A DNA stretch of 39,913 bases from an uncultured Heliobacteriaceae bacterium (GTDB lineage Bacteria > Acidobacteriota > Blastocatellia > RBC074): NCBI GenBank assembly GCA_964457105.1, contig CAYWDW010000001.1, forward strand, positions 1 through 39,913. Reading direction: 5' to 3'. Shown here piece after piece: positions 6,110 through 20,428 of the stretch. The position numbers were made by a program, and so were the translations under genes. The notes under the pieces are model-generated. The model was given only the letters and a program-made list of their open reading frames with translations, was not told the DNA's origin and made no database searches. Every line of letters begins with the position of its first letter. The stretch's first letter is position 1.

Positions 6110-7069
6110 TCATTTCGCCGGAGTGATCGTGATCTTCCGAAACGAAACTTTGCCGTGATCGCCCTGCAGCAGAATCGGGCCGGGCGCGGCCTCGTCGCTG
6201 TCAATCGCGCCGCCTGTGATGCCGGGAATCTCGATGTTATCAATGATGGTTTGGCCGTTCAGGACCACCGTCACGTGGCGACCGAGGAGCGTAATGTCAC
6301 AGGTCTGCCACGCGCCCGGTTTGCCTGAAGCATTGACCGAAGGTCTGATGAACCCGTACAGGCCGCCCATTCTCAGGCTGTCGCGTTCGCGGCCCAGATC
6401 GTCATTGATCTGCACTTCGTGGCGACCGCGCAGGTAAATGCCGCTGTTGCTTTCGGGGAGGATGTTGAATTCAACGTGCAGTTTGAAGTCAGTAAATTTC
6501 TGCTCGGTCAGAATGTCCACGCACGGGACGTTGTTGGTCATCGCGCCATTGGCGACGCTCCAGCAGTTGCCTTTGGTGTTATTGCGCAGCTTCCAGCCGG
6601 TCAGGTCTTTGCCGTTGAAAAGATTGACGGGTTTGCCCCACTGCGGCGCGGCGGTGCGCTTCATTTCAGGCGCGCGGACGGCCACCCAGTTGATCGTCGC
6701 GCCTTTCTCGTCAACGGTCGTGCCTGTGAGCTTGTCGCCGCTGAGCCTGCCGTGAAAGATCAGATCGCTGGTCGTCATTTCATACTGAGGTGGAATCTGA
6801 ACGGTCAGTTCGCCGTCCTTGTATTCAACCCTGGTCGCATAGCGCAGGCTGCCGAAGCGCCCGACAAAACTGCCCATCAGTTCAACCTCCTTGCGCAGGC
6901 GGATTTCCATCCACGACGGGTAAGGCCCGTCCGTCCCCTGGACGGTCAGATCCCAGCGGCCCAGAACTTTGTCAAAGGGGCCGGGGGCGCGTTGCGCCGC
7001 CGCAGTCAGGGTCAGGGTCACAAGGGCGAGCGTGAGCAGCAGAAGCTGCCTGAAAACATTCCGGTGCAT
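6110..7069 (-). CDS. Secreted DUF1080 (3-keto-disaccharide hydrolase-like, concanavalin-type lectin fold) protein
   Basis: 319-aa ORF with an AGGAGA SD and a signal peptide (LALVTLTLTAAAQ). The C-terminal half carries motifs typical of DUF1080: LFNGKDLTGWK, FKLHVEF, SNSGIYLRGR.EVQI and ILLQGDHGKVSFRKI. Confidence 0.8.
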   Translation of the reverse strand: MHRNVFRQLLLLTLALVTLTLTAAAQRAPGPFDKVLGRWDLTVQGTDGPYPSWMEIRLRKEVELMGSFVGRFGSLRYATRVEYKDGELTVQIPPQYEMTTSDLIFHGRLSGDKLTGTTVDEKGATINWVAVRAPEMKRTAAPQWGKPVNLFNGKDLTGWKLRNNTKGNCWSVANGAMTNNVPCVDILTEQKFTDFKLHVEFNILPESNSGIYLRGRHEVQINDDLGRERDSLRMGGLYGFIRPSVNASGKPGAWQTCDITLLGRHVTVVLNGQTIIDNIEIPGITGGAIDSDEAAPGPILLQGDHGKVSFRKITITPAK

Positions 7070-7463
7070 GCAGAATTTCTCCTGTTGATTCGGTCAGTTT
7101 GAATTGCAGATGATCTCTGGTGGAGAACGAACGAATGAGGCCGACCAGAGTCGCTGCCGGGTTCTGCGGCAACGGCTGTCGGCTTCGGCCCGCGGTGTCC
7201 GTGGACGCCGGGATTGTAGCAGAAAGGCTGCGGTTATTGGATGCGGCACGTACCGGCGGACAAAGAAAAACGCCCGCGCGCGCAGGGTCTTTCGGATTGC
7301 CCGCCAGGACCGAAAACCAGCAAAAAAAGATAGCCTGAGGTCAAATGGCTGTGCTAGATTGTGCGCGGTTTCAACCTGGCCCTGCCCTGAATTTTCAGCA
7401 TTTTAATCAGTCCTCCTGAACAGCCTCACAACTGGCGGCCCATGGTCCCGGTTCCTGGTTCAC

Positions 7464-10400
7464 ATGGCTCAGATCAAAAGCTACGTTGACCTCGAAAGTT
7501 ATGACGAGATAACCACCTTCGCGGGCGCTGACGCCGAGCGGGTGGTGCGGTCTTACGTCGTGACTGAAGAGACCGGGAAGCTGGCGGCGCAGATGCTGCG
7601 TGATCTGATTGCGCCGCGCGGTGCGGCGCCGGCCCTGCAGTTGATTTCAGGTCCGCGCGGCAGCGGCAAGAGTCACCTGCTGGCCTTTTTACGCGCGCTG
7701 ACCGGCACGCGGGCCGTGCGCTCCATTCCCGGTCACCCGCAGTTGCAACAGACGCTCAGCCACCTCGGCGGCAGGACGCTGATTCCGGTCGAACTCAATT
7801 TCATGGCCGGTGAGCCGACGGCATTTGAAGCCGTACTGCGTGCGGGCCTCAACAGCATTCTGGTCGAAGGCGCGGCCTTTGACGATACGCGGTGGCAGCA
7901 GGCCGTCGCCTGCGAACAGGTCTTTGAGCAGACGCTCAGTGTCATGTCGCTGGATGTGCAACTGGTGCTCTTCATTGACAACCTGTCGAGCCGCTGGCGG
8001 GCGACGCCGGAAGTGATTGAGAGCGATCTGAAATGGCTGAAGCTGATTGCACGACAAGCCGAATCGCTGCCGCTCAGGGCCGTCCTGGCCCTGGATGAAA
8101 AGGATTACGCCGCGCAACTGGAAGCTGGCGGACCGGGCGCCCTGCAGCCGCCGGTCAGCGTGCGCGCGCTGCCGCCGCACCTGCTGCGCACGGTCATCAC
8201 CCAGGGCGTGCTGCGCAAAAAGCCGGAAGCGAAAGCCCGCCTGACCGCTTTGTATCAGCAGATCACAGACAGTCTGCCGGGGTTTGCCTGGAGCGAGGGC
8301 GAGTTCATCGCTTATTACCCGGTGCATCCGACGCTGGAAACGCTCGCTCCGGCGATGTGCCGTCATACGCGCCATTTTTCACTGCCCGGCTTTGTCTCGA
8401 CTGCCGTCGCGCGCGCCCTCAACCGCCCGGAACTGTCGCTGGTCACGGTTGACGAACTCTTTGACCGCTACGAATACGAACTGCGCAAAAGCGAAGCGAC
8501 CGCCGCGCCCTTTGCGCTTTATGACCGCCTGGTCACTGAGGCGCTCGGCAATTTGTCAGTTGAGGATCGGCTGTGGGCGAGGATGCTTGGCAAGGCGCTG
8601 ACGCTGTTTCTGCTGACCGAAGAACCGGTGACGGTCGAGCGGCTGGCCGATGCGACGCTGATGTTCGACGGCGGCACGGCGACTGAAAGCGGATACGAAA
8701 GGGCGGCGCGCATTCTGGCGCATTTTGAACCGCTCGCGCCCGAAACAATTCGTCTGGCGGGCGCGGCAGGCGCGCGATCCTGGCAATGGCATCTGGTGCC
8801 GCCGCCGGTGCCGCTCAGTGAACAGCTCGCGACGGCAGCGCGTGACATCAGCCGCGCTGATCCGCGCCTGGCCAGGCTGCTGCTGAGCGTTGGCGGCAGC
8901 GTCTTTGCGGACTGGAATCCGGGCGACCTGGCGCGGCCCGCTGAGGCCGACATCTTCAGACCGCTGCTGCCGGAATCGGCTTTCAGTGAGATCACCTGGC
9001 GCGGCACACCGCGGCGCGGGCAGATTGGCCTCGCGACAAACGGGCAGCCGCCGTCGGGCGATGAACAGAACTGGCGGCTGCTGATCGTGCCATTCAATGC
9101 GGCGGCAAAGTCTGCCGCGACGATCAGTCAGCCGGGCGAAGTGCGCTGGCAGGCGGGCGAACTTGCGGATGACAAGGCGCTCGAACCGCTCGCCTGGCTG
9201 CTCGCGCTGCACGAACGCCCGGAACCGACTGAGGATGAGCAGGAGGAAGTGAATCGCCTGAAGGCTCAACTCGTCGCGCAGGTCAGAGAACTGTTCACCG
9301 ATTTATACCTGCGGCGCGGCGTGTTTGCCGATCAGCACGGCACGCGCCCGGTTTCGCCGGACCTTGATCCGGCCTCTGGTTTTGCCGCGCTGCTTAATCG
9401 TGAAATCACCGCCACGCTCGACAGTCTCTATCCCGATCATCCGCATTTTAACGGCCAGCTCACGAGCGACGATGTGCTGCTGCTGCTGACGGGGCTGTTT
9501 GCCAGCAGTTCACCGAATACCGAGCAGGTGCGCGAACTCGCGGCCAGGTTTGCGGTGCCGCTCGGCCTGGTCAGCGAAACGCGGGGCCGGTTCCGGCTCA
9601 ACGTGTTCAATGAAGCCGCCAACCTCCCGCCCTTTATTCACGCGCTGGTCACGCTGGTTGAAATTCATGCCGATGCCGAAGGCTGTTCGGATGTGCCGCT
9701 GCACAAGGTGCTGCGCCTGCTTGAAGTCTCGCCTTACGGGCTGCCGCTCGCGGCGCAGCATCTGATTCTGGTGGCGTTCATTTCGAGCGGCGTTTACGAA
9801 CTGATTGACGAAGCGACCGGCAAACGGCTGACGAAGGCGAATCTGCATCTGGGTTTTGAACCGGCGCGTTTCTCGACGCTGCGGCGCGTGGCCACGACCG
9901 ATTACCCGCTCGACATTCTGCAAACGTGGTCGAAACGCCTGACCGGACGCGACGATCTGCCAGCGCTGATTTCGCCCGAAGCGCATCACACCGTCCGCGA
10001 TGCGCTCTCGGACTGGCTGGAGCAGTGGCGCACACAGGACCTGCGGGAAAGATTTGAGGAACTGCCCGCGGATCTGATCACGATGACGACGTGGGTCAGC
10101 GTGAATATGAGCATCCGGCGTTATGAACGCGCCGCCGCGATGATCGAAAACATTCTGGAAGACGTGCTGACGATTGAAACCGGGCTGTCGCGCATCCTCG
10201 ATCTGTTCGGCCTGGATGTCATGGCGCTGGAGCAGGCGTGGCTGAAGATGCAGTCGCTGGCCGGGTTTCTGGACTGGCTGCCGCGCTTTGTGCAGCTCAG
10301 AAATTATCTGCTCGCGGCAGAGATGACCGGCGAAGCAGCGATTGATGAGCAGGGTGACGAGTTGCAGTCAGGTTTGCGCGAACTGCACGAACTGCTGCTG

Positions 10401-11084
10401 GCCGAATCGCGGCAGCAACTGGAACTGCGCTTTGAAGGGTTCCGCGAACAATACGGCAGTTATTACACCGCCGCGCACGAATCCAGCGTCGGTCATCGGG
10501 CTTACGTGGAAATGATCGAAAGCTTTTATGCCAGCGCCGAATGGCAGAGCTTCAAGCTGCTGACGCAGCTCAAGCTTGACGGGCGCGCCTTTGAAAGCGA
10601 TGCGCGCCTGCTGACCGAACTGGTGGAAAAGACGCGCTGCGACCTGCCGATCAGCGACATCCTGCAACGTCAGCCGCATTGTGGCTGCTCCTTCCGGCTC
10701 AATCGCCGCCTCAATCTCGGCAGCATTCTGGATGCCTTCCGCAGCCTCGCCCGCTCGGCGGCGGCCTGTTACAGCCAGGAGGTCTGGAAGCGCCGCGAGG
10801 AGTTGCGGCTGTGCGTGCGCGAACACGCCAGCGAACCGCTGGCGAGCGCCCTCAGTTGCTTTCTGAGTTCCTGCGGCGAAGGCCGGATCGAAGGCCTCTC
10901 GCAGGAAGTCGTCAGCTTTCTTAACGAACACCTGCCCGACCCGCCGCTCGTCGCCGTCCTGCCCGACATTCCGCGCTTCGATGACGGCAGCTTCACCCGC
11001 GAACAGTTGCGCGAAAACCTCAACCGCTGGATTGATTCGCTGCCCGAAGAAGAAGGCCTGCGCTTTCGCGTCGAACGCGCCTGA
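7464..11084 (+). CDS. Large soluble P-loop NTPase, BrxC/PglY-like (DUF499/DUF6079-type), orphan
   Basis: 1206-aa ORF. Walker A GPRGSGKSH lies at nt 7650-7673. The Walker-B-like strand LVLFIDN has Asn in place of the usual acidic second residue (nt 7977-7982). An AYYPVHP motif sits at nt ~8313-8330. The N-terminal leader ending in YVVTEE before the P-loop resembles BrxC-type ATPases. A C-terminal Cys cluster (C-x13-C-x-C) lies at nt ~10630-10700. No TM segments and no clear SD. The CDS is confident; the family assignment comes from motif memory only. Confidence 0.65.
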   Translation: MAQIKSYVDLESYDEITTFAGADAERVVRSYVVTEETGKLAAQMLRDLIAPRGAAPALQLISGPRGSGKSHLLAFLRALTGTRAVRSIPGHPQLQQTLSHLGGRTLIPVELNFMAGEPTAFEAVLRAGLNSILVEGAAFDDTRWQQAVACEQVFEQTLSVMSLDVQLVLFIDNLSSRWRATPEVIESDLKWLKLIARQAESLPLRAVLALDEKDYAAQLEAGGPGALQPPVSVRALPPHLLRTVITQGVLRKKPEAKARLTALYQQITDSLPGFAWSEGEFIAYYPVHPTLETLAPAMCRHTRHFSLPGFVSTAVARALNRPELSLVTVDELFDRYEYELRKSEATAAPFALYDRLVTEALGNLSVEDRLWARMLGKALTLFLLTEEPVTVERLADATLMFDGGTATESGYERAARILAHFEPLAPETIRLAGAAGARSWQWHLVPPPVPLSEQLATAARDISRADPRLARLLLSVGGSVFADWNPGDLARPAEADIFRPLLPESAFSEITWRGTPRRGQIGLATNGQPPSGDEQNWRLLIVPFNAAAKSAATISQPGEVRWQAGELADDKALEPLAWLLALHERPEPTEDEQEEVNRLKAQLVAQVRELFTDLYLRRGVFADQHGTRPVSPDLDPASGFAALLNREITATLDSLYPDHPHFNGQLTSDDVLLLLTGLFASSSPNTEQVRELAARFAVPLGLVSETRGRFRLNVFNEAANLPPFIHALVTLVEIHADAEGCSDVPLHKVLRLLEVSPYGLPLAAQHLILVAFISSGVYELIDEATGKRLTKANLHLGFEPARFSTLRRVATTDYPLDILQTWSKRLTGRDDLPALISPEAHHTVRDALSDWLEQWRTQDLRERFEELPADLITMTTWVSVNMSIRRYERAAAMIENILEDVLTIETGLSRILDLFGLDVMALEQAWLKMQSLAGFLDWLPRFVQLRNYLLAAEMTGEAAIDEQGDELQSGLRELHELLLAESRQQLELRFEGFREQYGSYYTAAHESSVGHRAYVEMIESFYASAEWQSFKLLTQLKLDGRAFESDARLLTELVEKTRCDLPISDILQRQPHCGCSFRLNRRLNLGSILDAFRSLARSAAACYSQEVWKRREELRLCVREHASEPLASALSCFLSSCGEGRIEGLSQEVVSFLNEHLPDPPLVAVLPDIPRFDDGSFTREQLRENLNRWIDSLPEEEGLRFRVERA

Positions 11085-11093
11085 CCTCAGAAA

Positions 11094-11213
11094 TGCAGAT
11101 TGCAGATTGCAGATTGCGGAATAAAGACCGGGTTTCTGATCCCGCAATCCGCAATCTGCAATCTGCAATCTGCAATCTGCAATCTGCAATCTGCAATCTG
11201 CAATCTGCAATTC
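11094..11213. repeat. Heptanucleotide tandem-repeat hairpin: (GCAGATT)x3 opposite (GCAATCT)x8-10
   Basis: Read directly from the sequence. 11095-11120 pairs perfectly (26 bp) with 11148-11173 across a 27-nt loop. The right arm continues as further unpaired GCAATCT units to 11213. The element starts 10 nt after the ATPase stop codon (11082-11084). Confidence 0.9.
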
Positions 11214-11350
11214 TGACTGCCTGTCTCCTGGGCTTCACCTTGTCTGCCTGATCTTCCCAGGGTATTGTCTGCGACTCAGTATCCTGCGGGTTGGCGGGCG
11301 TCTCGCGGCTTTCCTGATTTTCAAGCAACTGACTGAACGGAATTGAAGTT

Positions 11351-14245
11351 TTGGCCCTGAATCTGCAATCAGTCGCCGGCAGCCGCGCGGTTGTGAGCGC
11401 GGCGCTGCTGTTAATGCCGGTGATCTATTTTTATCCGGTCATCACCAGCCACGTCACGCTGCTGCCCGGCGACGGATGGACGCAGATTTTCGGCATCAGA
11501 ATGCTGACCGGAAAGCTGATCGCCCAGGGCCTGCTGCCGCTGTGGAATCCGTATGTGTTTGGCGGCATGCCGCTGCTGGCCAGCATTCAGCCGGGCGCGC
11601 TCTATCCGCCAAGCTGGCTCTTTGCGCTGCTGACGCCGCGCGCCGCAATGAACGTCATGGTGATAACGACTTATCACCTGGCGCTGACGGGCGCTTACCT
11701 CTATGCGCGGCGCATCGGCATTGACCGCACTGGCGCCGTCATCAGCGGGCTGGCCTTTGCCTTCAGCGGCTATCTGATTTCACACCTCGGACACACCAAC
11801 CGCATTGCCGCCGCCGCGTGGCTGCCCTGGCTGCTGCTGGCGGTCGAAAACCTCTCGCTGACGGCCAGGTGGCGCTGGGTCACGCTCGGCGCACTATTCA
11901 TTGCGCTGCAAATGCTGGCCGGTGAACCGCAGATGACCTGTTACGCGGGGCTGGTGACGGCGGCTTACTGGGCTTTCACTTTGCTGTTCAGAAAACCGCC
12001 GGCGGGCAGATGGCGATTCATCATCACAACGGCGGTCATGGCGATGTGCGGCGCACTGCTGTCGGCCATTCAACTGCTGCCGACGCGGGAACTGCTCGCA
12101 CAGGGGCCGCGCGCGCGACTCACTTACGAATACTTTTCGCTTTACGCGCTGCCGCCGCATCAACTGACTGAATTCATCCTGCCGTATTTTTACGGCGGCG
12201 CGGTGGCGGGGCCGTACCACATTCCGTTCTGGGGCCAGGAGGCGATTACTGAAACGTGCGGTTATGTCGGTCTGCTCGCGCTGCTGCTCGCGCTGACGGC
12301 GATTATCGGGCGCAGGCGGCAGCCGCTGGTGTGGTTCTGGGCCGCCGTCGTGGTGATTTCGCTGCTGCTGGCGTGTGGCGCTTACCTGCCGTTTGACATC
12401 AACCGGGCGCTGTATCGGATTCCGGTTTACAACCTCTTTCGCGCTTCCGGGCGGCATCTGCTGGAGTGCGATTTTGCGCTGGCGGTGCTGGCCGGACTCG
12501 GCGCGCAATTCATCAGCGAAAGAAAGCCCGCTGAAACCGCCCGCGCCGCGCTCGCGGGCACGCTGCTGCTGGCGGCACTGGTGACGCTGACGCTGGTGCT
12601 TTATCTCTTTTTCGGCGAGCGCCTGGTCAGCGGCATTCCGCGTCCGCCGCAGGCCGGTTCAATCGCCGCCCCTGAAGCCTTTGTCCCGCTTTTACTCTTT
12701 ATCGTCAGCACAGCGGTCTGCTGGCTTCATCTCAGACAACGCCGGGCGTGGTCGGGGGCGGCCATGGTGGCGGTGCTGTTCATTGATCTTTGTTCGTTCG
12801 GGCATTTCTTTGACTGGCGGGTTTACGATTTTGATGTGGCGGCGCGGCTGGCCGATCCTCCGGCGGTCAGCTTTATCAAACAGCGCGAGCCTGATTTCAA
12901 TGGCTTTCGCGTGGCGAGTTCGACCGTGCGCCCCTGGCCGTTTGGCGCAGCTTACGATCAGATCAATGCGCCGAACGTTTCGATTGCGCGCGGGTTGCAA
13001 AGCATCAATGGTTATGACCCGGTGCGCCTGCTGCGCCTGAGCGCCATCACCGGTGAAATGAGCATCGAAGGCGAGCCGCAGAATCTGAATGTGTATGGCG
13101 CGGAGCATCAGGGCTTCAATCTGCTCAATGTGAAATACCTGCTGCACGAACGGGCGCAGGCTGACGCGGCCAGGCCGAGCGTAAATTACGACGGCATCAT
13201 CTTTGACGAAAAGCCGCTGCATCTGAAACTGCCGCCGGGCAGTCAGCTTGAATTCACTCCGAACGGCATAACAGCGGCGGAACTGGCCATCGTGTCCACG
13301 CTGGCCAATTCGATTCACCTGCCGGACGGCGCGCCGGTCGCCAGGATCACGCTGCAAACACGCGACGGGCGCACCATCGAACGCGAACTTCAGGCCGGGC
13401 GCGACACCGCCGAATGGTCGTGGGATGAACCGCGCACCAGCCAGGCGGCGCGGCATCACCGCGCCAGGGTCGTGAGCAACTGGCCGGTCAATGAAACTTA
13501 TCAGGGCCATCATTATCTCGCCCGCCTCGCCTTTGAGCGCAGCGACATCACCCGCATCACCCTGACCTCAGCGCAATCGGCCAGCGGTCCGGCGGCGGAT
13601 GTGCTGCTGATGCGGCTTTCGCTGTTTGATCCGGTCACGGGCCGGTCAGCGCCGCTTGATCCGGTCGCGCTGCCGACGACCAGGTGGCGCAAACTTCAAA
13701 GCTTCGGCGCGGTTGATCTGTACGAAAACCTGAAGGCGCAGCCCCGCGCCTGGTTCGTGCGCGAAGTCGCCGCGCGTCCCGCCGCCGAAGTGTTGCAGGC
13801 GGTCACGTCAGGCCGCATGAAAGACGGGCAGCCATTCGACCCGGCGCAGACGGCCCTGCTTGAGACTGAAGATTTCGGCGCGCGCGCGATCACGCTGCCC
13901 GCGACCGGCCCGGTCAGCGAGGCCCAGGTCAGCGTTACAAAATATGAACCGCAGCGCATTGAACTGGTGACGCGCAACGCGCAGCCGGGCTTTCTGGTGC
14001 TGAGCGAAATTTATTATCGCGGCTGGGAAGCGTGGATTGACGGGCAGCGCGTGCCGGTTGAGCGCGCCAATTACGTCCTGCGCGGGCTGGCCGTGCCTGC
14101 CGGTGAACATCGCGTGGAATTCATCTTTCGCGCGCACAGCTTTCGCAACGGCGCAATGTATTCACTGCTCGGCGCGCTGCTGCTGACGGGCGGCGCGCTG
14201 CTGCAACGACGTTACTCACGCAGGAGAGCAGAAAAGCGGCTCTGA
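11351..14245 (+). CDS. YfhO family GT-C membrane glycosyltransferase, paralog 1
   Basis: 964-aa polytopic membrane ORF. The N-terminal motif is PGDGWTQ..LWNPY.FGG.PLLA. The C-terminal periplasmic domain ends with the YfhO-typical YYRGWEAWIDGQRVPVERANYVLRG..VPAGEHRVEF plus a final TM helix. The only in-frame start ahead of the first TM helix is TTG at 11351 (upstream in-frame stop at 11330-11332). Confidence 0.85.
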   Translation: MALNLQSVAGSRAVVSAALLLMPVIYFYPVITSHVTLLPGDGWTQIFGIRMLTGKLIAQGLLPLWNPYVFGGMPLLASIQPGALYPPSWLFALLTPRAAMNVMVITTYHLALTGAYLYARRIGIDRTGAVISGLAFAFSGYLISHLGHTNRIAAAAWLPWLLLAVENLSLTARWRWVTLGALFIALQMLAGEPQMTCYAGLVTAAYWAFTLLFRKPPAGRWRFIITTAVMAMCGALLSAIQLLPTRELLAQGPRARLTYEYFSLYALPPHQLTEFILPYFYGGAVAGPYHIPFWGQEAITETCGYVGLLALLLALTAIIGRRRQPLVWFWAAVVVISLLLACGAYLPFDINRALYRIPVYNLFRASGRHLLECDFALAVLAGLGAQFISERKPAETARAALAGTLLLAALVTLTLVLYLFFGERLVSGIPRPPQAGSIAAPEAFVPLLLFIVSTAVCWLHLRQRRAWSGAAMVAVLFIDLCSFGHFFDWRVYDFDVAARLADPPAVSFIKQREPDFNGFRVASSTVRPWPFGAAYDQINAPNVSIARGLQSINGYDPVRLLRLSAITGEMSIEGEPQNLNVYGAEHQGFNLLNVKYLLHERAQADAARPSVNYDGIIFDEKPLHLKLPPGSQLEFTPNGITAAELAIVSTLANSIHLPDGAPVARITLQTRDGRTIERELQAGRDTAEWSWDEPRTSQAARHHRARVVSNWPVNETYQGHHYLARLAFERSDITRITLTSAQSASGPAADVLLMRLSLFDPVTGRSAPLDPVALPTTRWRKLQSFGAVDLYENLKAQPRAWFVREVAARPAAEVLQAVTSGRMKDGQPFDPAQTALLETEDFGARAITLPATGPVSEAQVSVTKYEPQRIELVTRNAQPGFLVLSEIYYRGWEAWIDGQRVPVERANYVLRGLAVPAGEHRVEFIFRAHSFRNGAMYSLLGALLLTGGALLQRRYSRRRAEKRL

Positions 14246-14306
14246 ATGAACACGAATTTTCACGAATGACCGAAATTCAAAATCATCAGCGTGAAATGAT
14301 CCTGAC

Positions 14307-17300
14307 TTGAAGGCTTCAACCTCAAAGCTGAAATCAACCAGCACGCATCGCGCCCTGATCGGGGCGGCGCTGCTCGTGCTGCCGCTGGTCTGGTTTTATC
14401 CGGCGTTCACGGGCAGTTCATCGCTCGCGCCGGGTGATGGCTGGTTTCAGAATTTCGGCGTGCGCGTGCTGACTGGCAGGCTGCTTGACAGCGGTTTTCT
14501 GCCGCTCTGGAATCCGTATATTTTCGGTGGCCTGCCGTTGCTGGCGAGCACCTATCCGGGCGCGCTTTATCCGCCCAACTGGCTGTTTGCGCTGTTCTCG
14601 CCGGGCGTGGCGATGAAGGTCGTGGTCATCACGACTTATCACCTGGCGCTGCTTGGCACGTATCTTTATCTGCGCCGGGTCGGGCTGTCACGACTGGCGG
14701 CGCTGGCGGGCGGGCTGAGCTTCACCTTCAGCGGTTTTATGATCGCGCATCTCGGTCACACGTCGCGCATCGCGGCGGCGGCGTGGCTGCCCTGGATGAT
14801 GCTGGCGATGGAGCAGCTTTATCAGCGCATTTCGTGGCGGTGGGTCGTCATCGGGTCCTTCTTTTTCGCGCTGCAGTTTCTGGCCGGTGAACCGCAGATG
14901 CTGGTTTACACGGCGCTGGTGGCCGGGGCTTATGTGCTGTTTGCCATGCTCTTTCGTCCGGCGACTGCGCCGCGCTGGCAGTTGCTTGCGGCGGCGGCCA
15001 CGATGATTGTTTGCGGCACGCTGCTGGCGGCGATCAACTGGATTCCGTCCCGCGAACTGGTGCAGCAAAGCGGGCGCGCAAAGCTGACGTATGAATACTT
15101 CAGCGCGTTTTCAATGCCGCCGCGTCAGGTGGTGTCGCTGATCTTTCCCTATTTTTTCGGCGGCGCGGTTTCGCGGCCATACATCCTTGCGCCCTGGGGG
15201 CCGTCGGACTGGGGCGCCGACAACGTGGCGGTTTCGTGCGGCTATGTGGGAATGTTCGCGCTGCTGCTGGCGCTCGTGGCCATCTGCGGGTCGCAGCGGT
15301 GGCGGCTGGTCTGGTTCTGGGGCTTTATCGCCGCGCTGTCGCTGACGCTGGCCTTTGGCGCCTACCTGCCCTTCGGACTCAATGGCCTGTTGTATCGCCT
15401 GCCGGTTTACAACCTCTTTCGCGGCTCTTACCGTCACCTGCTGGAGTTTGATTTTGCGGTTTCAGCGCTGGCCGGCTTCGGGCTGCATTACCTGGCGCAG
15501 ATGGATCAGGCCAGCGTGCGCCGCGCCCTCACCCGCGCGGCGGCAAGCCTGGGTCTGCTGGTGACTGTGACCGCGATTGTTTACTGTTTTTTCTGGCCGC
15601 ACCTGCTGACGAATAAACCGCGTCAGCCGCAGTTCGGTTCGCTCACCAATGCCGAAGCGCTCATTCCGATCAGCTTTTTTCTGCTCAGCGTGATGACCGC
15701 ATGGTTTTATGCGCGGCGTCGCAGCCGCCTGGCCGGCGCGCTGCTGATCGGATTGCTGCTGGCTGATCTGGCGGCTTTCGGGCACGCCTTTGAGTGGCGC
15801 AATGCGGCGTTTGACGCGAACGCGCAACTCAGCGATCCGCCCGCCGTCAGGGCCATCAAGGCCCGCGAAACCGATCTGAACTCGTTTCGCATTCTCAGTC
15901 ACGGCGCAATGCCGTTTGTCGAAAATTACGACGCGCTCGATTTTCCGAATGTCTCGATTGCGCGCGGCCTGCAAAGCGTCAACGGCTATGACGTGCTGCA
16001 ACTGCGCCGCTTCGCCGCCGTCGCCGGTGAGATGACCGCTGAAGGCGCGGTGCAGGACAGCAGCGCCTTCGACCCGCAGCATCAGGGTTTCAATCTGCTC
16101 AATGTGAAATACCTGCTCAATGAACGGCGCGTGCCGGTTGATGAATTTCACGGCGATAAAATTGACGGCGTCGTGTTCAGCCGCGCTCCGCTGAGCCTCA
16201 GGCTCAGGCCGGGCACGCACGTTGAAATGGCGCTGAACGGCGTGACGGCCACTGAACTCGCCGTCATTTCATCGCTGAGCAATGCAGCCGCGCTGACAAA
16301 CGGCACGCCGGTGGCCAGCGTCAGGCTGCACACGAGCGACGGGCGCGTGATTGAACGCGAATTGCAGGCCGGGCGCGACACTGCCGAATGGGCCTGGGAT
16401 CGCGCCGATGTGACGTCCGTCATCAGACATCAGCGCGCTGCCGCAGCGCAAAGCTGGGACGCGGGCGGCTTCGCGGGCCATCGGTATCTGGCACGGCTGC
16501 GGTTTGACCGGGCTGAAATCGTCAGCGTGGAATTTGATTTTCGTGAAACCGGATCGGTTGAACTCAGCCTCGAACGCGCTTCGCTGTTTGACGCGCAGTC
16601 GCAGACCTCAACGCCGCTCGACAGTCGCACGCTGCCCGCTTCACGCTGGCGCAAACTGGCGCAGTTCGACACCGTTGATTTATACGAAAACATCAGGGCG
16701 CTGCCCCGCGCCTGGTTTGTGCGCGAGGTGCAGGCCCGGCCTGCCGCTGAAGTGTTGCAGGCCATCAAAACCGGCAGGCTGACCGATCAGCAGCCCTTCG
16801 ATCCGGCACAGACGGCCCTGCTTGAGACTGAAGATTTCGGCGCGCGCGCGATCACGCTGCCCGCGACCGGCCCGGTCAGCGAGGCCCAGGTCAGCGTTAC
16901 AAAATATGAACCGCAGCGCATTGAACTGGTGACGCGCAACGCGCAGCCGGGCTTTCTGGTGCTGAGCGAAATTTATTATCGCGGCTGGGAAGCGTGGATT
17001 GACGGGCAGCGCGTGCCGGTTGAGCGCGTCAATCACGTCCTGCGCGGCGTGAGTGTCGCGCCGGGCAGCCATCGCATCGAATTTGTGTTTCGCTCGCCGG
17101 GCTTTCGCAACGGCATCAGGTATTCACTGCTCAGCCTGCTCGTGCTGCTGACCGGAGCCGTCATCAGTCAGACCGGGTGGCCGCGACGCCCAGGCCTGCA
17201 GTCAGCGGCAAAATTTCGTTTCAGGGTGCGCGGTTCAAAATGGTGGCTCGGCGGCGTGGTCGTGGCGCTGACGCTGTATGGCGCAACGCTCATTCGGCAG

Positions 17301-18719
17301 GCTTCTTATGCGGTCGGCGGCTCTGACAGTTCAGGGTATGCCAGCGTTGCGCGCGCACTGTTGAGCGATCATCTGGTGCAGGAGGTCGCGCCGCTCAGAC
17401 AACTCGGACTGCCCGCTGAGTTCGCGCCGTATTTCATTCCGCTCGGTCACGCGCCGGGGCCGCGTCCGGGCACGATGTCGTCATTTTATCCCGTTGGCTG
17501 GCCGCTGCACCTGGCGGCGGCGGCGACGCTGGCAGGCTGGAAAAACGGGCCGTTCATCGTCAGTCCGCTGCTGGCGGTGCTGTGCCTGGTGCTGATGTAT
17601 CTGGTCGGCATCGAGCTGGGATTGTCGCGCGGTCTGGCCGCGACGGGTTCATTTCTGCTCGCGGTGTGTCCGGTCTTTGTGTATCTGGCGCTGCAACCGA
17701 TGAGCGACATTGCCGCGACTTTCTGGTCACTGCTGGCAGTGCTGGCGGCCTTGCGTTCAGGGCGACAGCAGCCATGGGCCGTCGTGGCCGGCGCGGCCTT
17801 CGGCGTGGCCTTTCTGGTGCGCCCGACGAATGTGCTGCTGCTGGCGCCGCTGCTGCTGAGCCTGCGGCTGAAGCCCAGGACGCTGCTTTACTTTCTGCTC
17901 GGTGGCGCGCCGCTGGCCCTCGTTTTTCTGATTTACAACCAGGCGGCGTATGGTCATCCGCTGCGCACCGGGTACGGGGCAATTCAGTTGCAGGATGCGA
18001 TTGCGCTTCATTATTTTCCGGCGCGCTTCAGGCACTATGTTTACTGGCTGGCGATGATGATGAGTCCGCTGCCGCTTGTCGGCTGGCTGCTGACGGCCTT
18101 CAATCGCCGGATTGAATGGCGACGGCGCGCGTTGCTGATCGGCTGGTTTGCGGCGTTCTTTCTGTTTTACTGCTGCTACGAAATTTACAACGAATGGTGG
18201 TACACGCGCTTTTTACTGCCGGGCATTCCGGCGCTGATTATCGGCCTGCTGCTGACGGCGCAGACGCTGGCGGCAAACGTGGCTGACCGGCTGACGAGTG
18301 AACGACGGCGGCAGGCGTGGCGCGCGGCGGTAATTTGCGTGCTGCTGATTATTCCGGCAATCTTTGCGCAGCAGATCCTCCGGCGTTTTGCGATTCTCAG
18401 TCTGGGCGCGACCGATTATGTGCATGCGCGTTCGTGTCGCTGGGCTGATCGTCAGTTGCCCGCGCAGGCGCTGGTGGTTTCGATGGAGATGAGCGGCGCG
18501 CTGAAATTTTACACGGGCCGCCCGATTGCGCGCTGGGATTACCTGCTGCCGGAACAATGGACGATCATCAGCCGTCACGCGGCGGAGCGGAACGTGCGCT
18601 GTTATGCGCTGCTGATGCCGCAGGAGATTGCCGCCGCGCAGCAACACCTGCCTGGCCGGTGGCGTCAGCTTGGGCAGTATCAGCAGATCAGCCTCTGGCA
18701 GATTGAGCAACAACCATAA
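14307..18719 (+). CDS. Fusion protein: YfhO family GT-C module (aa 1 to ~950) + ArnT/PMT-like (GT39/GT83-type) GT-C module (aa ~970-1470)
   Basis: 1470-aa continuous ORF. The N-terminal ~950 aa are paralogous to 11351..14245 and include a 220-nt identical tract. The C-terminal ~500 aa add about 10 more TM helices with an early loop motif (GGSDSSGY) and a soluble tail, resembling polyprenyl-phosphate-dependent ArnT/PMT_2 enzymes. TTG start at 14307 (in-frame stop at 14292-14294). Confidence 0.8.
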   Translation: MKASTSKLKSTSTHRALIGAALLVLPLVWFYPAFTGSSSLAPGDGWFQNFGVRVLTGRLLDSGFLPLWNPYIFGGLPLLASTYPGALYPPNWLFALFSPGVAMKVVVITTYHLALLGTYLYLRRVGLSRLAALAGGLSFTFSGFMIAHLGHTSRIAAAAWLPWMMLAMEQLYQRISWRWVVIGSFFFALQFLAGEPQMLVYTALVAGAYVLFAMLFRPATAPRWQLLAAAATMIVCGTLLAAINWIPSRELVQQSGRAKLTYEYFSAFSMPPRQVVSLIFPYFFGGAVSRPYILAPWGPSDWGADNVAVSCGYVGMFALLLALVAICGSQRWRLVWFWGFIAALSLTLAFGAYLPFGLNGLLYRLPVYNLFRGSYRHLLEFDFAVSALAGFGLHYLAQMDQASVRRALTRAAASLGLLVTVTAIVYCFFWPHLLTNKPRQPQFGSLTNAEALIPISFFLLSVMTAWFYARRRSRLAGALLIGLLLADLAAFGHAFEWRNAAFDANAQLSDPPAVRAIKARETDLNSFRILSHGAMPFVENYDALDFPNVSIARGLQSVNGYDVLQLRRFAAVAGEMTAEGAVQDSSAFDPQHQGFNLLNVKYLLNERRVPVDEFHGDKIDGVVFSRAPLSLRLRPGTHVEMALNGVTATELAVISSLSNAAALTNGTPVASVRLHTSDGRVIERELQAGRDTAEWAWDRADVTSVIRHQRAAAAQSWDAGGFAGHRYLARLRFDRAEIVSVEFDFRETGSVELSLERASLFDAQSQTSTPLDSRTLPASRWRKLAQFDTVDLYENIRALPRAWFVREVQARPAAEVLQAIKTGRLTDQQPFDPAQTALLETEDFGARAITLPATGPVSEAQVSVTKYEPQRIELVTRNAQPGFLVLSEIYYRGWEAWIDGQRVPVERVNHVLRGVSVAPGSHRIEFVFRSPGFRNGIRYSLLSLLVLLTGAVISQTGWPRRPGLQSAAKFRFRVRGSKWWLGGVVVALTLYGATLIRQASYAVGGSDSSGYASVARALLSDHLVQEVAPLRQLGLPAEFAPYFIPLGHAPGPRPGTMSSFYPVGWPLHLAAAATLAGWKNGPFIVSPLLAVLCLVLMYLVGIELGLSRGLAATGSFLLAVCPVFVYLALQPMSDIAATFWSLLAVLAALRSGRQQPWAVVAGAAFGVAFLVRPTNVLLLAPLLLSLRLKPRTLLYFLLGGAPLALVFLIYNQAAYGHPLRTGYGAIQLQDAIALHYFPARFRHYVYWLAMMMSPLPLVGWLLTAFNRRIEWRRRALLIGWFAAFFLFYCCYEIYNEWWYTRFLLPGIPALIIGLLLTAQTLAANVADRLTSERRRQAWRAAVICVLLIIPAIFAQQILRRFAILSLGATDYVHARSCRWADRQLPAQALVVSMEMSGALKFYTGRPIARWDYLLPEQWTIISRHAAERNVRCYALLMPQEIAAAQQHLPGRWRQLGQYQQISLWQIEQQP

Positions 18720-18775
18720 AGATGAACAAACGACCGGCTGCCGTCCGGCCAGCCAACTGACAAGGAGATCACGCG

Positions 18776-19285
18776 ATGAACAAAGCTCTGGCACTGATTT
18801 TATTACTGCTGCTGTGCGGTCTGGCCGGGTGCGCGGCGGATGAGGACAAGGCGTCCCCGACTCCGGCGGCAGCGACGACGCCCACGCCCGAACCACAGGT
18901 GATTTATGAAAAGGGATTCTTTGATGAAGAACGCGACCGCGATCTGACGTGGCGCTGGATGAGCGAGGAAGGCGTCATCAGGCTGAAGAATCCGAAGCGC
19001 GACGCCGTGCTGAAGATCAGGGGCAATGTGCCGAAAGACCGCTTCCCGCAACCGCCGACCATCACCATCAAACTCAACGGTGAACAGCTCGATCAGTTCC
19101 CGGCCCCGACCGAACCGACTGAGAAGGTCTACAACATTCCGGCAGCGCGGCTCGGCAACGGCGACTTTGCCGAACTGACCATCAGCAGCAGCAGAGTTTT
19201 TATCCCCAAAGAAGTGGATAAAAACTCAACCGACCCGCGGCACCTGAGTTTTTCGCTCCAGGGCCTGAGCTGGGAAGCAAAGTGA
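18776..19285 (+). CDS. Small lipoprotein of unknown function (Pro/Thr/Ala linker + ~125-aa beta-rich domain)
   Basis: 169-aa ORF with an AAGGAG SD. The lipobox LLCGLAGC is followed by a low-complexity linker (AADEDKASPTPAAATTPTPEPQ). It lies 56 nt after the GT-C fusion gene on the same strand and is followed by a strong hairpin. Confidence 0.75.
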   Translation: MNKALALILLLLLCGLAGCAADEDKASPTPAAATTPTPEPQVIYEKGFFDEERDRDLTWRWMSEEGVIRLKNPKRDAVLKIRGNVPKDRFPQPPTITIKLNGEQLDQFPAPTEPTEKVYNIPAARLGNGDFAELTISSSRVFIPKEVDKNSTDPRHLSFSLQGLSWEAK

Positions 19286-19297
19286 CAATGCACACGC

Positions 19298-19344
19298 AGC
19301 CACAGCCGGACCGCGAACTTTCAGTTCGCGGTCCGGCTGTGGCT
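19298..19344. terminator. Bidirectional hairpin terminator between convergent genes
   Basis: Perfect 22-bp inverted repeat (19298-19319 with 19323-19344) and a minimal loop. It sits between the lipoprotein stop (19285) and the PhzF-like stop (19349). No U tract on either side. Confidence 0.65.
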
Positions 19345-19348
19345 CACT

Positions 19349-20278
19349 TCAGAAAGTCATCTTGCCGGTCAGCACTTCAACGGCAGCGCCGCCGATGCGC
19401 ACGACGCTGACCTCACCGGCGGTGCCTTCGACTTCAGCTTCGATGCGACTGGGGCGGCCCATGTCAATGCCCTGTTCGATAATGAAATTTGCGGCGCCAT
19501 TGACTGAGGCCACCACGCCGTAATGCACCAGCGCGGCGGCCAGCGTGCCGGCGGCGCTGCCGGTCGCGGGGTCTTCGCCAACGCCGGTTGATTCATCGGC
19601 AAACATCCGCGTGCTGACGAAGGATTCCGCATGGTGCGTTTCGCGGGTGACGGCATAGAGGCCCGTGCCTCCGGTGCGCCTGAGCAGGGCTGACAATTCA
19701 GCGCCGTTCGTTTTCATCCGGCTCAGGGCCGAGCGGCTGCGCAGCGGCACGATCAGAAACCTCACGCCGGTTGATGACACAATCACCGGCAGGACCGAAT
19801 CGCCAATCTCATCCGGCGACAGATTCAGCGCGCGGGCGCAGGCGGCAATTTCATCGAGCGGCGCGCCGACTTCCGGCCTGCCCTGCGTCATCACGACTCT
19901 GACCGGCCTGCCGTCAGCGAAATCAATGGCCACCGGCAGCACGCCGAGTTTCAGTTCCTGCTGAATCGTGACGCGCCCGTTGCCTGAGGCGGGCGGAGCC
20001 ACCACGCCGCGCCGCGCCAGGACATTCCACGTCCCGACCACCGGATGCCCCGCAAGCGGCAGCTCCTGGCCCGGCGTGAAGATGCGCAACCGGCGCAGCG
20101 CCTTTGCCGGATCGCCCGGCGGCAGCACAAAGACTGTTTCTGACAAATTCATTTCTCGCGCAATCCGCTGCATCGTTACCTCGTCAATGCCTGCGGCCTC
20201 TGGAAAGACCGCCAGCGGATTGCCCTCAAAAATCCTTGCCGTAAAGACGTCGCACTGAATGAATGAATATGCTGGCAT
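19349..20278 (-). CDS. PhzF family phenazine-biosynthesis-like isomerase
   Basis: 309-aa ORF. The N-terminus MPAYSFIQCDVFTARIFEGNPLAVF...LSETVFVLPP is the typical PhzF-family signature. Confidence 0.85.
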   Translation of the reverse strand: MPAYSFIQCDVFTARIFEGNPLAVFPEAAGIDEVTMQRIAREMNLSETVFVLPPGDPAKALRRLRIFTPGQELPLAGHPVVGTWNVLARRGVVAPPASGNGRVTIQQELKLGVLPVAIDFADGRPVRVVMTQGRPEVGAPLDEIAACARALNLSPDEIGDSVLPVIVSSTGVRFLIVPLRSRSALSRMKTNGAELSALLRRTGGTGLYAVTRETHHAESFVSTRMFADESTGVGEDPATGSAAGTLAAALVHYGVVASVNGAANFIIEQGIDMGRPSRIEAEVEGTAGEVSVVRIGGAAVEVLTGKMTF

Positions 20279-20289
20279 AGGTGAAAGCG

Positions 20290-20421: not shown

Positions 20422-20428
20422 TGCTTTA

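Follow-up and report, generated by a model that had tools for sequence, protein, structure and literature searches.

A block of four genes in a soil acidobacterium raised the question of whether a BrxC-like ATPase and the glycosylation genes downstream of it form one system or are merely neighbors. The original prediction, made for the same 39,913-nt stretch of DNA (here called the window), proposed a coupled five-part system of ATPase, repeat hairpin, two YfhO-type enzymes (one fused to a second GT-C module) and a lipoprotein, with two adjacent units as a fallback. All sequence features that it listed were found at the coordinates given (Table 1). ORF coordinates placed the four genes on the same strand, reproduced gaps of 61 and 56 nt within the presumed operon, and confirmed that the flanking genes, coding for a Tricorn protease, a 3-keto-disaccharide-hydrolase-family protein (keto3) and PhzF, are on the opposite strand. 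The ATPase gene and yfhO1 are separated by 266 nt. Purifying selection was evident for all genes (dN/dS, 0.08 to 0.31). As set out below, we consider it likely that the four genes belong to two transcription units, independent of each other and adjacent by descent, the fallback being a better reading than the coupled system.

Table 1. Coordinates of genes and sequence features at the locus
Feature	Position in window	Strand	Size or remark
Tricorn protease	2651-6007	-	
keto3	6110-7069	-	
Divergent intergenic region, keto3 (-)/ATPase (+)	7070-7463		394 nt
ATPase	7464-11084	+	1206 aa
Hairpin with heptamer-repeat arms, terminator-like	11087-11216	+	between ATPase and operon
Promoter-like motif TTG(C/T)CTG-N15-16-TAT(C/T)(C/G)T	11240-11268	+	conserved, heads glycosylation operon
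YfhO1	11351-14245	+	964 aa
YfhO::PMT_2 fusion	14307-18719	+	1470 aa
Lipoprotein	18776-19285	+	169 aa
Perfect hairpin between convergent lipoprotein and PhzF genes	19298-19344		22-nt arms, 100% complementary
PhzF	19349-20278	-	

The predicted BrxC-like nature of the ATPase was borne out by a Pfam match to DUF6079/BrxC-PglY_N (41 bits; gathering score, 23) and by weak matches to BrxC in PADLOC; the NCBIfam BrxC model gave 20 bits, with a cutoff of 400. Alignment to BrxC of BREX type-3-like operons with hhalign had a probability of 100% and an E value of 2e-43 over 1109 aligned columns, at only about 17% identity. An AF2 model (pLDDT, 80) retrieved the BrxC structures 9zll, 9zdx and 9zn5 as top Foldseek matches (Acinetobacter BrxC best), with ∼570 aligned columns at the N terminus matching solved Acinetobacter BrxC and, next, ORC/Cdc6. 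The Walker A residues (G63-x2-G66-x-G68-K69-S70) and D172 were invariant, the C-terminal Cys motif conserved in the family was present, and dN/dS against the orthologous locus L001 was 0.21. Judged by these sequence matches, the ATPase is a full-length, highly diverged, ORC/Cdc6-like AAA+ protein of the BrxC/PglY (DUF6079) family. Its full-length homology, intact Walker motifs, Cys motif and purifying selection could also be those of the BrxC of a complete but dispersed BREX system, with PglX, PglZ and other genes elsewhere in the genome. We regard this as very improbable, given the low NCBIfam score and the genomic setting: no PglZ, PglX, BrxF, BrxHII, BrxA or other BREX gene was found within about 10 kb at about 27 orthologous Blastocatellia loci, and at none of these was the ATPase a neighbor of a methyltransferase or helicase gene. 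Distant DUF6079 genes (L028-L046), in contrast, mostly lie in compact operons with a DNA methylase, often also with a helicase and PglZ. The ATPase is an orphan BrxC lineage, long inherited vertically in Blastocatellia beside housekeeping genes and not in a defense island, and its gene appears monocistronic.

The divergent intergenic region upstream probably carries the promoters of both keto3 and the ATPase gene. In blastn it was 87% identical to L001 over its full length, while in L134, L004 and L005 conservation was limited to an inner block; in relatives this block comprised 43 to 66 nt, at about positions 7322-7387. A 100-aa ORF at 7104-7406 was not conserved as a protein. At its other end, the ATPase gene is followed by the predicted repeat hairpin, which was confirmed by repeat detection (TGCAGAT, 3.4 copies at 11094-11117; GCAATCT, 9.7 copies at 11144-11211; arms up to 41 nt) and by RNA folding (MFE, -68.3 kcal/mol; z = -8.9; 0 of 200 shuffled sequences folded as well). 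Most orthologues likewise have a long stable hairpin, of different sequence, after the ATPase stop codon (exceptions, L130, L132 and L137). Since the hairpin has no U-tract and the terminator scan made no call, read-through is possible; most likely, this terminator-like element marks the boundary between the ATPase unit and the glycosylation operon. Long perfect hairpins stand directly 3′ of other terminal genes in the window as well (19298-19344, 25917-25983 and 36934-37039). The first of these, predicted as the right-hand border of the block and confirmed (-48.4 kcal/mol; z = -10), looks like a bidirectional terminator, and L001 has a hairpin of other sequence at the equivalent position.

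Downstream of the repeat hairpin, the promoter-like motif was an invariant block across the four intergenic sequences aligned and was unique in the window, where 0 matches were expected by chance. In 17 loci it lay 5′ of the leading glycosylation gene; two of these, L048 and L061, lack the ATPase and have the motif 5′ of a GT2 gene. Because a strict sigma-70 consensus scan did not call this site, it is from conservation that we infer the motif to be the operon's own promoter.

The repeat hairpin might serve to regulate the YfhO operon and not merely to terminate the ATPase transcript: changes in copy number by slippage, or recombination between the arms, would tune or switch the first GT-C gene in the manner of a contingency locus. 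Of 10 GT2-proximal (“YFYPV”-type) YfhO genes, 9 had tandem arrays of 7- to 8-nt units no more than 260 nt 5′ of TM1, usually paired with their own complement as a hairpin; among the 28 other YfhO paralogues, such arrays were seen in just 2 (Fisher p = 3e-6). The repeat units vary by locus (AATCCGC, GGGGAGT, GGGGACAA and GGAGAGAC), suggesting that it is the structure on which selection acts. An AATCCGC array lies within the first codons of YfhO in L057, L066 and L085, and the start of YfhO1 in the window retains a relic, AATCTGCAATC. Moreover, a sister strain has arms of 3 and 4 copies and an inverted loop, and between it and the window there is a net length difference of 49 nt (7 units) in the ATPase-YfhO1 gap, most of it in the right arm. 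Against such a role, ten independent sister-strain assemblies had identical hairpins, so that this lineage shows no hypervariability, and the arrays of L057 and L066 were equal in length. In the window, the element lies 5′ of the promoter-like motif and thus outside an operon transcript starting there. Repeat-arm hairpins resembling it also occur at unrelated intergenic sites (20290-20421 and 30983-31140, which are two oppositely oriented copies of one element, and 36934-37039) and may be a general REP-like feature of the genome; the tandem-repeat hairpin elements had no match in Rfam. On balance, we hold regulation of the operon by the hairpin to be possible, but rather doubtful.

ATPase orthologues do occur next to GT-C operons. 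A glycosylation gene was found directly 3′ of the ATPase gene in 17 of 27 informative loci and nearby, behind other genes, in two (L130 and L003); eight had none. Direct adjacency of the two, with the genes co-oriented, was retained down to 36% ATPase identity, although the upstream neighbors differ between the two main clades. This could reflect function and counts against two unrelated units; it would fit a single defense or envelope module in which the ATPase, for example, senses phage or stress and controls surface-glycan modification (receptor masking). The ancestry of the ATPase in a phage-defense family agrees with such a module, as do L013 and L027, where an ATPase > GT2 pair outlived the loss of the YfhO genes, and L016, the only locus of the 36-41% identity group without glycosylation genes, where the ATPase gene is split by a frameshift.

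We nevertheless judge a coupled module to be improbable. The eight ATPase loci without a downstream glycosylation gene (L127, L129, L133, L134, L136, L137, the P0017 contig and L016; 0.8 to 10 kb of downstream sequence covered) include a close relative, the 67%-identical L134, and loci of the clade with 48-53% identity retain the ATPase, yet just one of the nine has a glycosylation gene directly after it. Conversely, the ATPase was absent from all 80 metagenomic YfhO loci, in which the sequence 5′ of the first glycosylation gene exceeded 1 kb in 48, 2 kb in 39 and 4 kb in 25. The gene order of L061 (tricorn < keto3 <> GT2 > YfhO) is that of the window minus the ATPase. Not only do the hairpin and the independent promoter-like motif separate the ATPase gene from the operon, but most loci have a gap of about 170 nt or more between the two, versus 18 to 61 nt within the operon. 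In 16 of the 17 loci from clades with at least 48% identity, the secreted, unrelated keto3 protein is encoded 5′ of the ATPase; it is retained just as frequently as the glycosylation genes, so common descent accounts for the adjacency and no shared function need be assumed. At the other border, PhzF adjoins the operon in L001, L008, L011, L021 and L130. Sequence identities further indicate that the histories of ATPase and operon are decoupled, the operon having been exchanged among close relatives independently of the ATPase: L002 and L135 are 90 to 91% identical to the window in keto3 and 71 to 72% in the ATPase, but 55 to 56% in YfhO, whereas YfhO1 of L001 is 92% identical. Finally, the ATPase is soluble, with no predicted TM segments, and no membrane or glycan-related domain was found in it.

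The three downstream genes constitute, as predicted, a GT-C (YfhO/PMT_2) extracytoplasmic glycosylation operon with a lipoprotein. Both large proteins matched YfhO in Pfam (60.4 bits for YfhO1 and 42.4 bits for the fusion; gathering score, 28.5), as did 10 of 10 homologues scanned. YfhO1 comprises a polytopic N-terminal domain (at least 8 TM segments in aa 1-485, with an invariant PGDGW in the first loop), a soluble, probably periplasmic domain (about 440 aa) and a TM segment at the C terminus. In the fusion, a YfhO module (about aa 1-980) is followed by a polytopic, ArnT/PMT-like PMT_2 module (about aa 981-1470, window positions about 17247-18719) with an invariant Asp near the module N terminus. 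The PMT_2 match, which spans only about 110 residues of the ∼490-aa module, scored 25.6 bits in the whole fusion and 28.7 bits for the module alone (gathering score, 26.1); homologous C-terminal modules matched PMT_2 in 11 of 12 and PMT in 8 of 12 cases. The same fusion (about 1490 to 1544 aa) was present in L011, L014, L021, L047, L048, L052, L056, L058 and L130. Compared with L001, the PMT_2 module was 57% identical and the YfhO part 86%, which suggests exchange of the module.

The lipoprotein has a signal peptide and an L-A-G-C lipobox, the Cys of which (Cys19) was invariant in 9 homologues, and a disordered Pro/Thr/Ala linker (aa 20-40). Its AF2 model (pLDDT, 83.5; >90 across a beta-sandwich domain) had CBM35, CBM6 and the carbohydrate-binding domain of BcsB as top Foldseek matches (E about 1e-4; TM, 0.4 to 0.5), and the modeled domain resembles carbohydrate-binding modules. 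The GT2 that would charge the lipid carrier, already noted as missing, was not detected anywhere in the window by tblastn with three GT2 queries (best E, 0.44); in distant relatives, a 235-aa GT2 (Glycos_transf_2, E 4e-30) is encoded by the first gene of the same operon. The operon of the window is a shortened version of one that is widespread among acidobacteria and has the order GT2 > YfhO > (YfhO/PMT_2) > lipoprotein.

With two independent units as the preferred reading, the gene for the ATPase, a cytoplasmic protein, would be transcribed alone, probably from the divergent region, up to the repeat hairpin. By homology, its product is predicted to be an oligomerizing, nucleotide-dependent, ORC/Cdc6-like protein binding DNA or partner proteins. 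The second unit (yfhO1, yfhO2::pmt2 and the lipoprotein gene) would be driven by the promoter-like element. By analogy to the CsbB/GtcA/YfhO, GtrB/PgtC2 and Pgf systems, a GT2 encoded elsewhere in the genome would, in the cytoplasm, charge polyprenyl phosphate with a sugar, the lipid-linked sugar would be flipped across the membrane, and the GT-C modules would pass it to a periplasmic or envelope acceptor. With its Thr/Pro-rich linker and CBM-like domain, the lipoprotein may either be an acceptor itself or act as a partner that binds the glycan. Of continued interest are the orphan BrxC lineage, the fusion of two GT-C modules and the recurrence of 7- to 8-nt-repeat hairpins at YfhO 5′ ends.

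In published work, the role given to BrxC within BREX is that of an ORC/Cdc6-type scaffold ATPase, and DUF6079 is named as the profile that fits it best; glycosyltransferase contexts are not mentioned in the main text of this BREX survey (bioRxiv 10.1101/2025.10.09.681413; PMC13326643). The nearest kind of BREX is type 3 (BrxF-BrxC-PglXI-BrxHII-PglZ-BrxA). The ATPase of the window shares full-length homology, Walker A/B motifs and the C-terminal Cys cluster with BREX BrxC/PglY, but differs in its low identity, its score below the NCBI cutoff, its lack of BREX neighbors and its vertical inheritance beside housekeeping genes within one bacterial class.

The operon resembles three-component GT2/flippase/GT-C systems, i.e., CsbB-GtcA-YfhO (Bacillus subtilis, Listeria LTA), GtrB-PgtC2 and streptococcal Pgf (PgfS, PgfM1 and PgfM2), in its YfhO-family GT-C enzymes and, in relatives, in a DPM1/GtrB-type GT2 as first gene. 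Unlike these, it has no GT2 in the window, and one of its YfhO proteins carries a second GT-C module as a fusion. No flippase was identified for it, and the host is presumably diderm. Its two YfhO paralogues recall PgfM1 and PgfM2, although matches to the NCBIfam PgfM1/PgfM2 models covered only the last ∼70 residues (22 to 28 bits; cutoffs, 1400 to 1500). Like the Pgf cluster, which encodes its own adhesin substrates, the operon encodes an envelope protein with a Ser/Thr/Pro-rich disordered segment; GtrB/PgtC2 adds sugar to disordered regions rich in Ser/Thr, among them the one in the lipoprotein PrsA (PMC12041528). The C-terminal module of the fusion is like PMT/ArnT-type GT-C enzymes (Pfam PMT_2 and PMT; GT39/GT83) in being polytopic with an invariant Asp, and unlike them in its fusion to YfhO and its short match. 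REP/BIME and the cyanobacterial STRR heptanucleotide repeats are palindromic or tandem-repeat intergenic elements. The short tandem heptamers of the window are likewise intergenic, hairpin forming and present in several copies per genome, but differ in that their unit sequence changes from site to site and in their statistical link to the 5′ side of a YfhO subfamily.

The four plus-strand ORFs of the block were found exactly where the original prediction had placed them, with internal gaps of 61 and 56 nt, and the flanking genes, coding for a 3-keto-disaccharide-hydrolase-family protein (keto3), a Tricorn protease and PhzF, are on the minus strand. Both hairpins described previously are real: the heptamer hairpin behind the ATPase gene folded at -68.3 kcal/mol (z = -8.9), and the 22-bp hairpin past the lipoprotein gene is perfect (-48.4 kcal/mol). 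As had been noted, the entire window has no gene for a polyprenyl-phosphate (carrier-charging) glycosyltransferase (GT2); in relatives it is the first gene of the operon. The interpretation as a glycosylation operon missing its GT2 was retained, but its coupling to the ATPase in one five-part module was not: boundary elements separate the units, YfhO loci from metagenomes lack the ATPase, and neutral neighbours are kept about equally well. We consider it probable that the block consists of two adjacent units. The window belongs to a Blastocatellia (Acidobacteriota) genome, and by source names the nearest homologues of its proteins are from that class. An origin of the block as a mobile element or island was rejected because of the even GC content across the window (0.57-0.65) and the housekeeping neighbours. 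Upstream of keto3, close relatives carry two or three Tricorn-protease paralogues in tandem (window, L001, L002, L005, L134 and L138; L numbers denote loci of relatives), which are 62-94% identical to the window copy.

Coordinates of features in the window and in loci of relatives
Sequence	Feature	Positions	Strand	Remarks
Window	Region of tandem Tricorn-protease paralogues	~1-6007
Window	Tricorn protease	2651-6007	-
Window	keto3, 3-keto-disaccharide-hydrolase-family protein	6110-7069	-	319 aa, signal peptide
Window	ORF considered as BrxF remnant	7104-7406		100 aa
Window	ATPase ORF	7464-11084	+	1206 aa
Window	Heptamer hairpin	11087-11216
Window	Promoter-like motif	11240-11268
Window	YfhO1 ORF	11351-14245	+	964 aa
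Window	Identical YfhO stretch, YfhO1	13832-14065		approximate
Window	YfhO::PMT_2 fusion ORF	14307-18719	+	1470 aa
Window	Identical YfhO stretch, fusion	16800-17033		approximate
Window	PMT_2 module	17247-18719
Window	Lipoprotein ORF	18776-19285	+	169 aa
Window	3'-end hairpin	19298-19344
Window	PhzF	19349-20278	-
Window	Repeat element, one copy	20290-20421		between two - genes
Window	3'-end hairpin	25917-25983		perfect 30-nt arms, 4 nt past stop of 962-aa gene, before next same-strand gene
Window	Repeat element, other copy	30983-31140		between two - genes
Window	3'-end hairpin	36934-37039		directly past gene 3' end; 41-nt arms of ~9-nt repeats, 93% complementary
L001	PMT_2 module	19954-21408
L016	ATPase in two frames	10001-13509		aa 1-281, 285-1157
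L017, L019, L020, L024	Longer DUF6079 proteins	~10000-16000		1715-2053 aa
L130	Malic enzyme gene	6431-8722
L048	7-8-nt-repeat hairpin	4445-4560
L052	7-8-nt-repeat hairpin	200-290
L057	7-8-nt-repeat hairpin	6947-6967
L061	7-8-nt-repeat hairpins	6730-6830, 8237-8264
L066	7-8-nt-repeat hairpin	6881-6908
L067	7-8-nt-repeat hairpins	800-920, 2317-2351
L085	7-8-nt-repeat hairpin	3020-3160

Most ATPase orthologues have a long stable hairpin behind them, its sequence being either unique or built of repeats; the exceptions are L130, L132 and L137. The one in the window has the stem of a canonical terminator, has no U-tract and was not listed by a terminator consensus scan, which returned 19 hits versus 14.7 expected (no enrichment) and missed both long hairpins. 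Other terminal genes of the window are also followed by long perfect hairpins, which appear to have no U-tracts either; long hairpins of this kind may be the prevailing type of terminator in this DNA. Downstream of the ATPase hairpin lies the motif TTG(C/T)CTG-N15-16-TAT(C/T)(C/G)T, unique in the window with none expected by chance, whose hexamers and spacing would resemble a -35/-10 pair. It precedes YfhO1, the first GT-C gene, in the window's clade and GT2 in the other clade, and it is also present ahead of GT2 in L048 and L061, two loci that have no ATPase. A strict sigma-70 scan called no promoter, so the case for a promoter is the conservation of the motif itself. Genes of the operon are spaced 18-61 nt apart, and the gap between ATPase and operon is at least ~170 nt in most loci. 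Together, the hairpins, the conserved motif and the gap sizes argue for two transcription units.

Synteny around the ATPase was studied in 46 loci, found by scanning a single genome for each species, and in further contigs obtained via exact-protein look-ups, with neighbours annotated by tblastn, ORF clustering and Pfam. Glycosylation genes lie directly downstream of the ATPase in 17 loci, nearby in 2 and are missing in 8, among which L136, L137 and the contig of the homologue P0017 offer only 0.8-3.2 kb of downstream sequence.

Gene order around the ATPase in relatives, by ATPase identity to the window
ATPase identity	Arrangement	Loci
at least 63%	keto3 divergent from ATPase, YfhO and following genes downstream	window, L001, L002, L005, L135
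at least 63%	keto3 divergent from ATPase, glycosylation genes absent within 10 kb	L134 (67%)
48-53%	GT2 immediately downstream	L132
48-53%	glycosylation genes one or two genes off	L130, L003
48-53%	no glycosylation gene	L127, L129, L133, L136, L137, P0017 contig
36-45%	ATPase, GT2, YfhO(::PMT_2), lipoprotein, then PhzF on the opposite strand; or ATPase and GT2 alone	L006-L011, L013, L014, L021, L027 (L007, L009 and L010 are short contigs with only GT2 visible)
36-45%	ATPase frameshifted, glycosylation genes absent	L016

keto3, which served as a neutral synteny control, is located upstream of the ATPase in 16 of the 17 loci of the two clades with at least 48% identity, and in all clades PhzF stays next to the glycosylation operon. 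Retention of these neutral neighbours is thus roughly on a par with that of the ATPase-operon pair. keto3 itself was rejected as a functional partner of the ATPase: it is secreted and has a ConA-like domain, and the 36-45% clade lacks it, with genes upstream that were assigned by eye as proline-dehydrogenase-like and ECF-sigma-like. The interrupted ATPase of L016, which is a pseudogene or else reflects an error in MAG assembly, marks the sole locus of the 36-41% identity group with neither GT2 nor YfhO downstream. In L130, a malic enzyme gene lies directly after the ATPase gene (50% identical), between the promoter-like motif and GT2. A malic enzyme gene also follows the ATPase in the next-closest clade (P0035, 31% identical; L148/L149), where the contig ends.

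Seen from the other side, a metagenome scan with the YfhO alignment yielded 80 loci at 27-71% identity. The ATPase was detected in 0 of these 80, even at a tblastn E value of 10, with sequence upstream of the first glycosylation gene exceeding 1 kb in 48 loci, 2 kb in 39 and 4 kb in 25. Several metagenomic loci showed GT2 and YfhO behind unrelated upstream genes, and L061 has the window's context minus the ATPase, with Tricorn protease and keto3 divergent from GT2 and YfhO. The predicted glycosylation operon is autonomous and occurs far more widely than the ATPase. Except for L001 (92%), identity of YfhO to the window levelled off at ~50-57% in all loci. Since this plateau includes L002 and L135, despite keto3 being 90-91% identical there, the operon has been exchanged independently of the ATPase-keto3 side. 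If the two-unit reading is right, the block is mostly a caution: same-strand adjacency conserved within one class is not enough to define a module where unrelated neighbours show the same degree of conservation.

The ATPase matched Pfam PF19557 (DUF6079, now BrxC-PglY_N) with 41 bits versus a gathering score of 23, over residues 3-290 only. Matches to the PADLOC BrxC models were weak, and the protein was below the NCBIfam BREX_BrxC equivalog cut-off (20 versus 400 bits). Full-length homology to BrxC was found using hhalign with a profile of 20 ATPase orthologues (A1) against one of 12 DUF6079 proteins (A6) out of BREX-3-like operons of verified type (probability 100%, E 2e-43, 1109 columns, 17% identity). 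The latter operons comprise a small ~150-aa gene, DUF6079, an N6_N4 methylase, an SNF2 helicase, PglZ and a ~235-aa gene. Since PDB sequence searches gave only marginal BrxC matches with the ATPase profile (E 1e-3) and no solved YfhO structure with the YfhO profile, structure prediction with Foldseek was needed. The AlphaFold model of the ATPase (pLDDT 80) had its best PDB matches in Acinetobacter BrxC (9zll, 9zdx and 9zn5, ~550-570 columns; E 2e-6 for 9zll and 9zdx), with ORC/Cdc6 next. In published work, canonical BrxC is a scaffold ATPase of ORC/Cdc6 type whose best-matching profile is DUF6079 (bioRxiv 10.1101/2025.10.09.681413; PMC13326643). Walker A (GxxGxGKS), Walker B (D172) and a C-terminal Cys cluster are invariant, no TM segment is present, and the gene is under purifying selection (dN/dS 0.21 versus L001). 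By homology, the protein would be an oligomeric ORC/Cdc6-like ATPase now working without BREX partners nearby.

Neither a PglZ phosphatase gene nor PglX/PglXI methyltransferase or PT modification genes were present in the window or within ~10 kb in orthologous loci; PglZ occurs at distant DUF6079 loci, such as L036, and the N6_N4 methylase only at such distant loci. A 100-aa ORF upstream of the ATPase was rejected as a BrxF remnant, as its DNA conservation is patchy with frame changes and not protein-like. Judged from sequence, this BrxC lineage of Blastocatellia is vertically inherited, has intact ATPase motifs and is an orphan as to nearby BREX partners. A profile-free search of 1.84 billion representatives returned 133 ATPase clusters at E ≤ 1e-30, many of them full-length relatives at 24-32% identity. 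The partner-less lineage and the 133 clusters, part of which were checked for context, suggest that BrxC-type ATPases may also operate outside BREX. MAGs of Blastocatellia, Acidobacteria and 'Clostridia' encode much longer DUF6079 proteins, ~25% identical over the first ~800 residues; genes for a membrane protein of ~210 aa and a TM Ser/Thr kinase come next, another non-BREX context of the family.

The same heptamer hairpin is present in a sister strain (L138-L147, ten independent assemblies, 98% identical), in which the arms contain 3 and 4 copies versus 3.4 and 9.7 in the window. The window's right arm is ~6 heptamers longer, its intergenic gap is net 49 nt (7 units) longer, and the ~22-nt loop is inverted between the two. 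The ten sister-strain assemblies are identical to each other at this site and thus give no sign of hypervariability in that strain. No Rfam family passed its gathering threshold anywhere in the window, the hairpin and the 5' region included. Arrays of AATCCGC, a rotation of the window's CGCAATC unit, were found within the first YfhO codons in L057, L066 and L085, the last with a complementary arm after the GT2 stop, and differing 7-8-nt-repeat hairpins occupy the same place in other loci. Arrays lie upstream at 9 of 10 GT2-proximal YfhO genes versus 2 of 28 other paralogues (p = 3e-6), and those at the YfhO 5' end may provide translational control or a frameshift switch. The 7-8-nt-repeat hairpins fall in the stretch that runs from the GT2 stop to TM1 of the first YfhO, often inside the first codons, where the AATCCGC arrays encode KSAIRNPQSAI; the array recurs in an internal YfhO loop.

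Repeat-built hairpins recurring 5' of one YfhO subfamily hint that surface glycosylation may be under structured or switchable control, and repeat-arm hairpins also occur at unrelated sites in the window. On these observations, we treated the window's hairpin primarily as a terminator-like, REP-like element and regard a regulatory or phase-variation role for YfhO as rather unlikely. That a BREX-derived BrxC, domesticated in Blastocatellia to stand alone, acts on, or responds through, the adjoining polyprenyl-phosphate-dependent surface glycosylation operon, with the first GT-C gene of the latter tuned by a slippage-prone repeat hairpin, is improbable; if true, soil bacteria would have a phage-defence ATPase tied to variable masking by surface glycans. 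Elsewhere in the window, an element of ~130-160 nt occurs twice, the copies facing opposite ways, with arms of the heptamers GGAAGTC/GGTAGTC versus CTTCCGA/CTACCGA and core AGATGGC/CTGCCAT repeats. These look like members of a dispersed REP- or STRR-like element family.

Within the glycosylation operon, the second of the two proposed units, both large membrane proteins are predicted YfhO-family GT-C enzymes, scoring 60.4 and 42.4 bits against Pfam YfhO (gathering score 28.5), which also matched 10 of 10 relatives. Both have a polytopic N-terminal domain and a large soluble domain: 8 or more TM segments fall within aa 1-485, residues 490-935 are soluble, and a further TM segment lies at the C-terminus. 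An invariant P39-G40-D41 with its acidic residue lies in the putative first extracytoplasmic loop. The fusion protein carries an extra ~490-aa polytopic module that matched PMT_2 with 28.7 bits alone and 25.6 within the full protein (gathering score 26.1); 11 of 12 homologous modules matched as well. This module is 57% identical between the window and L001, versus 86% for the YfhO part of the same protein and 87-94% for the neighbouring genes (whole-gene dN/dS of the fusion, 0.31), and appears to have been swapped or to evolve very fast. YfhO1 and the YfhO part of the fusion are 56% identical overall, yet share 78 residues at 100% identity (YfhO1 aa 828-905), the surrounding 300 nt being 88% identical as DNA, which indicates recent gene conversion between the tandem paralogues.

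The carrier-charging enzyme absent from the window is a 235-aa DPM1/GtrB-type protein in relatives (Glycos_transf_2, E 4e-30), encoded by the first operon gene in L006-L014, L021, L027, L048, L057, L061, L066, L130 and L132. No GtrA/GtcA-type flippase family matched among the window proteins scanned, a set above small-ORF size. To our knowledge, the envelope glycobiology of Acidobacteria is little studied; the acidobacterial GT2-YfhO-(YfhO::PMT_2)-lipoprotein operon is widespread and includes two GT-C modules fused in one protein.

The lipoprotein has a signal peptide followed by the lipobox MNKALALILLLLLCGLAG|C (LAGC), with C19 invariant in 9 sequences, and one N-terminal hydrophobic segment. 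It further comprises a disordered Pro/Thr/Ala linker and a confidently modelled beta-sandwich, whose Foldseek neighbours were CBM35, CBM6 and the BcsB carbohydrate-binding domain (E 8e-5 to 1e-3, TM 0.38-0.50, 10-19% identity); the fold class is clear in the model, the domain being a candidate carbohydrate-binding module. Domain identities, operon composition in relatives and boundary elements were observed directly, and by analogy GT2 would make a polyprenyl-P-sugar, which would be flipped across the membrane and transferred by the YfhO and PMT_2 modules to an extracytoplasmic acceptor. A plausible acceptor or glycan-binding partner would be the lipoprotein, which combines the Thr/Pro-rich disordered linker with the CBM-like domain. 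One template for this mechanism is the CsbB/GtcA/YfhO system. Further templates are the GtrB/PgtC2 and Pgf systems (PMC12041528).
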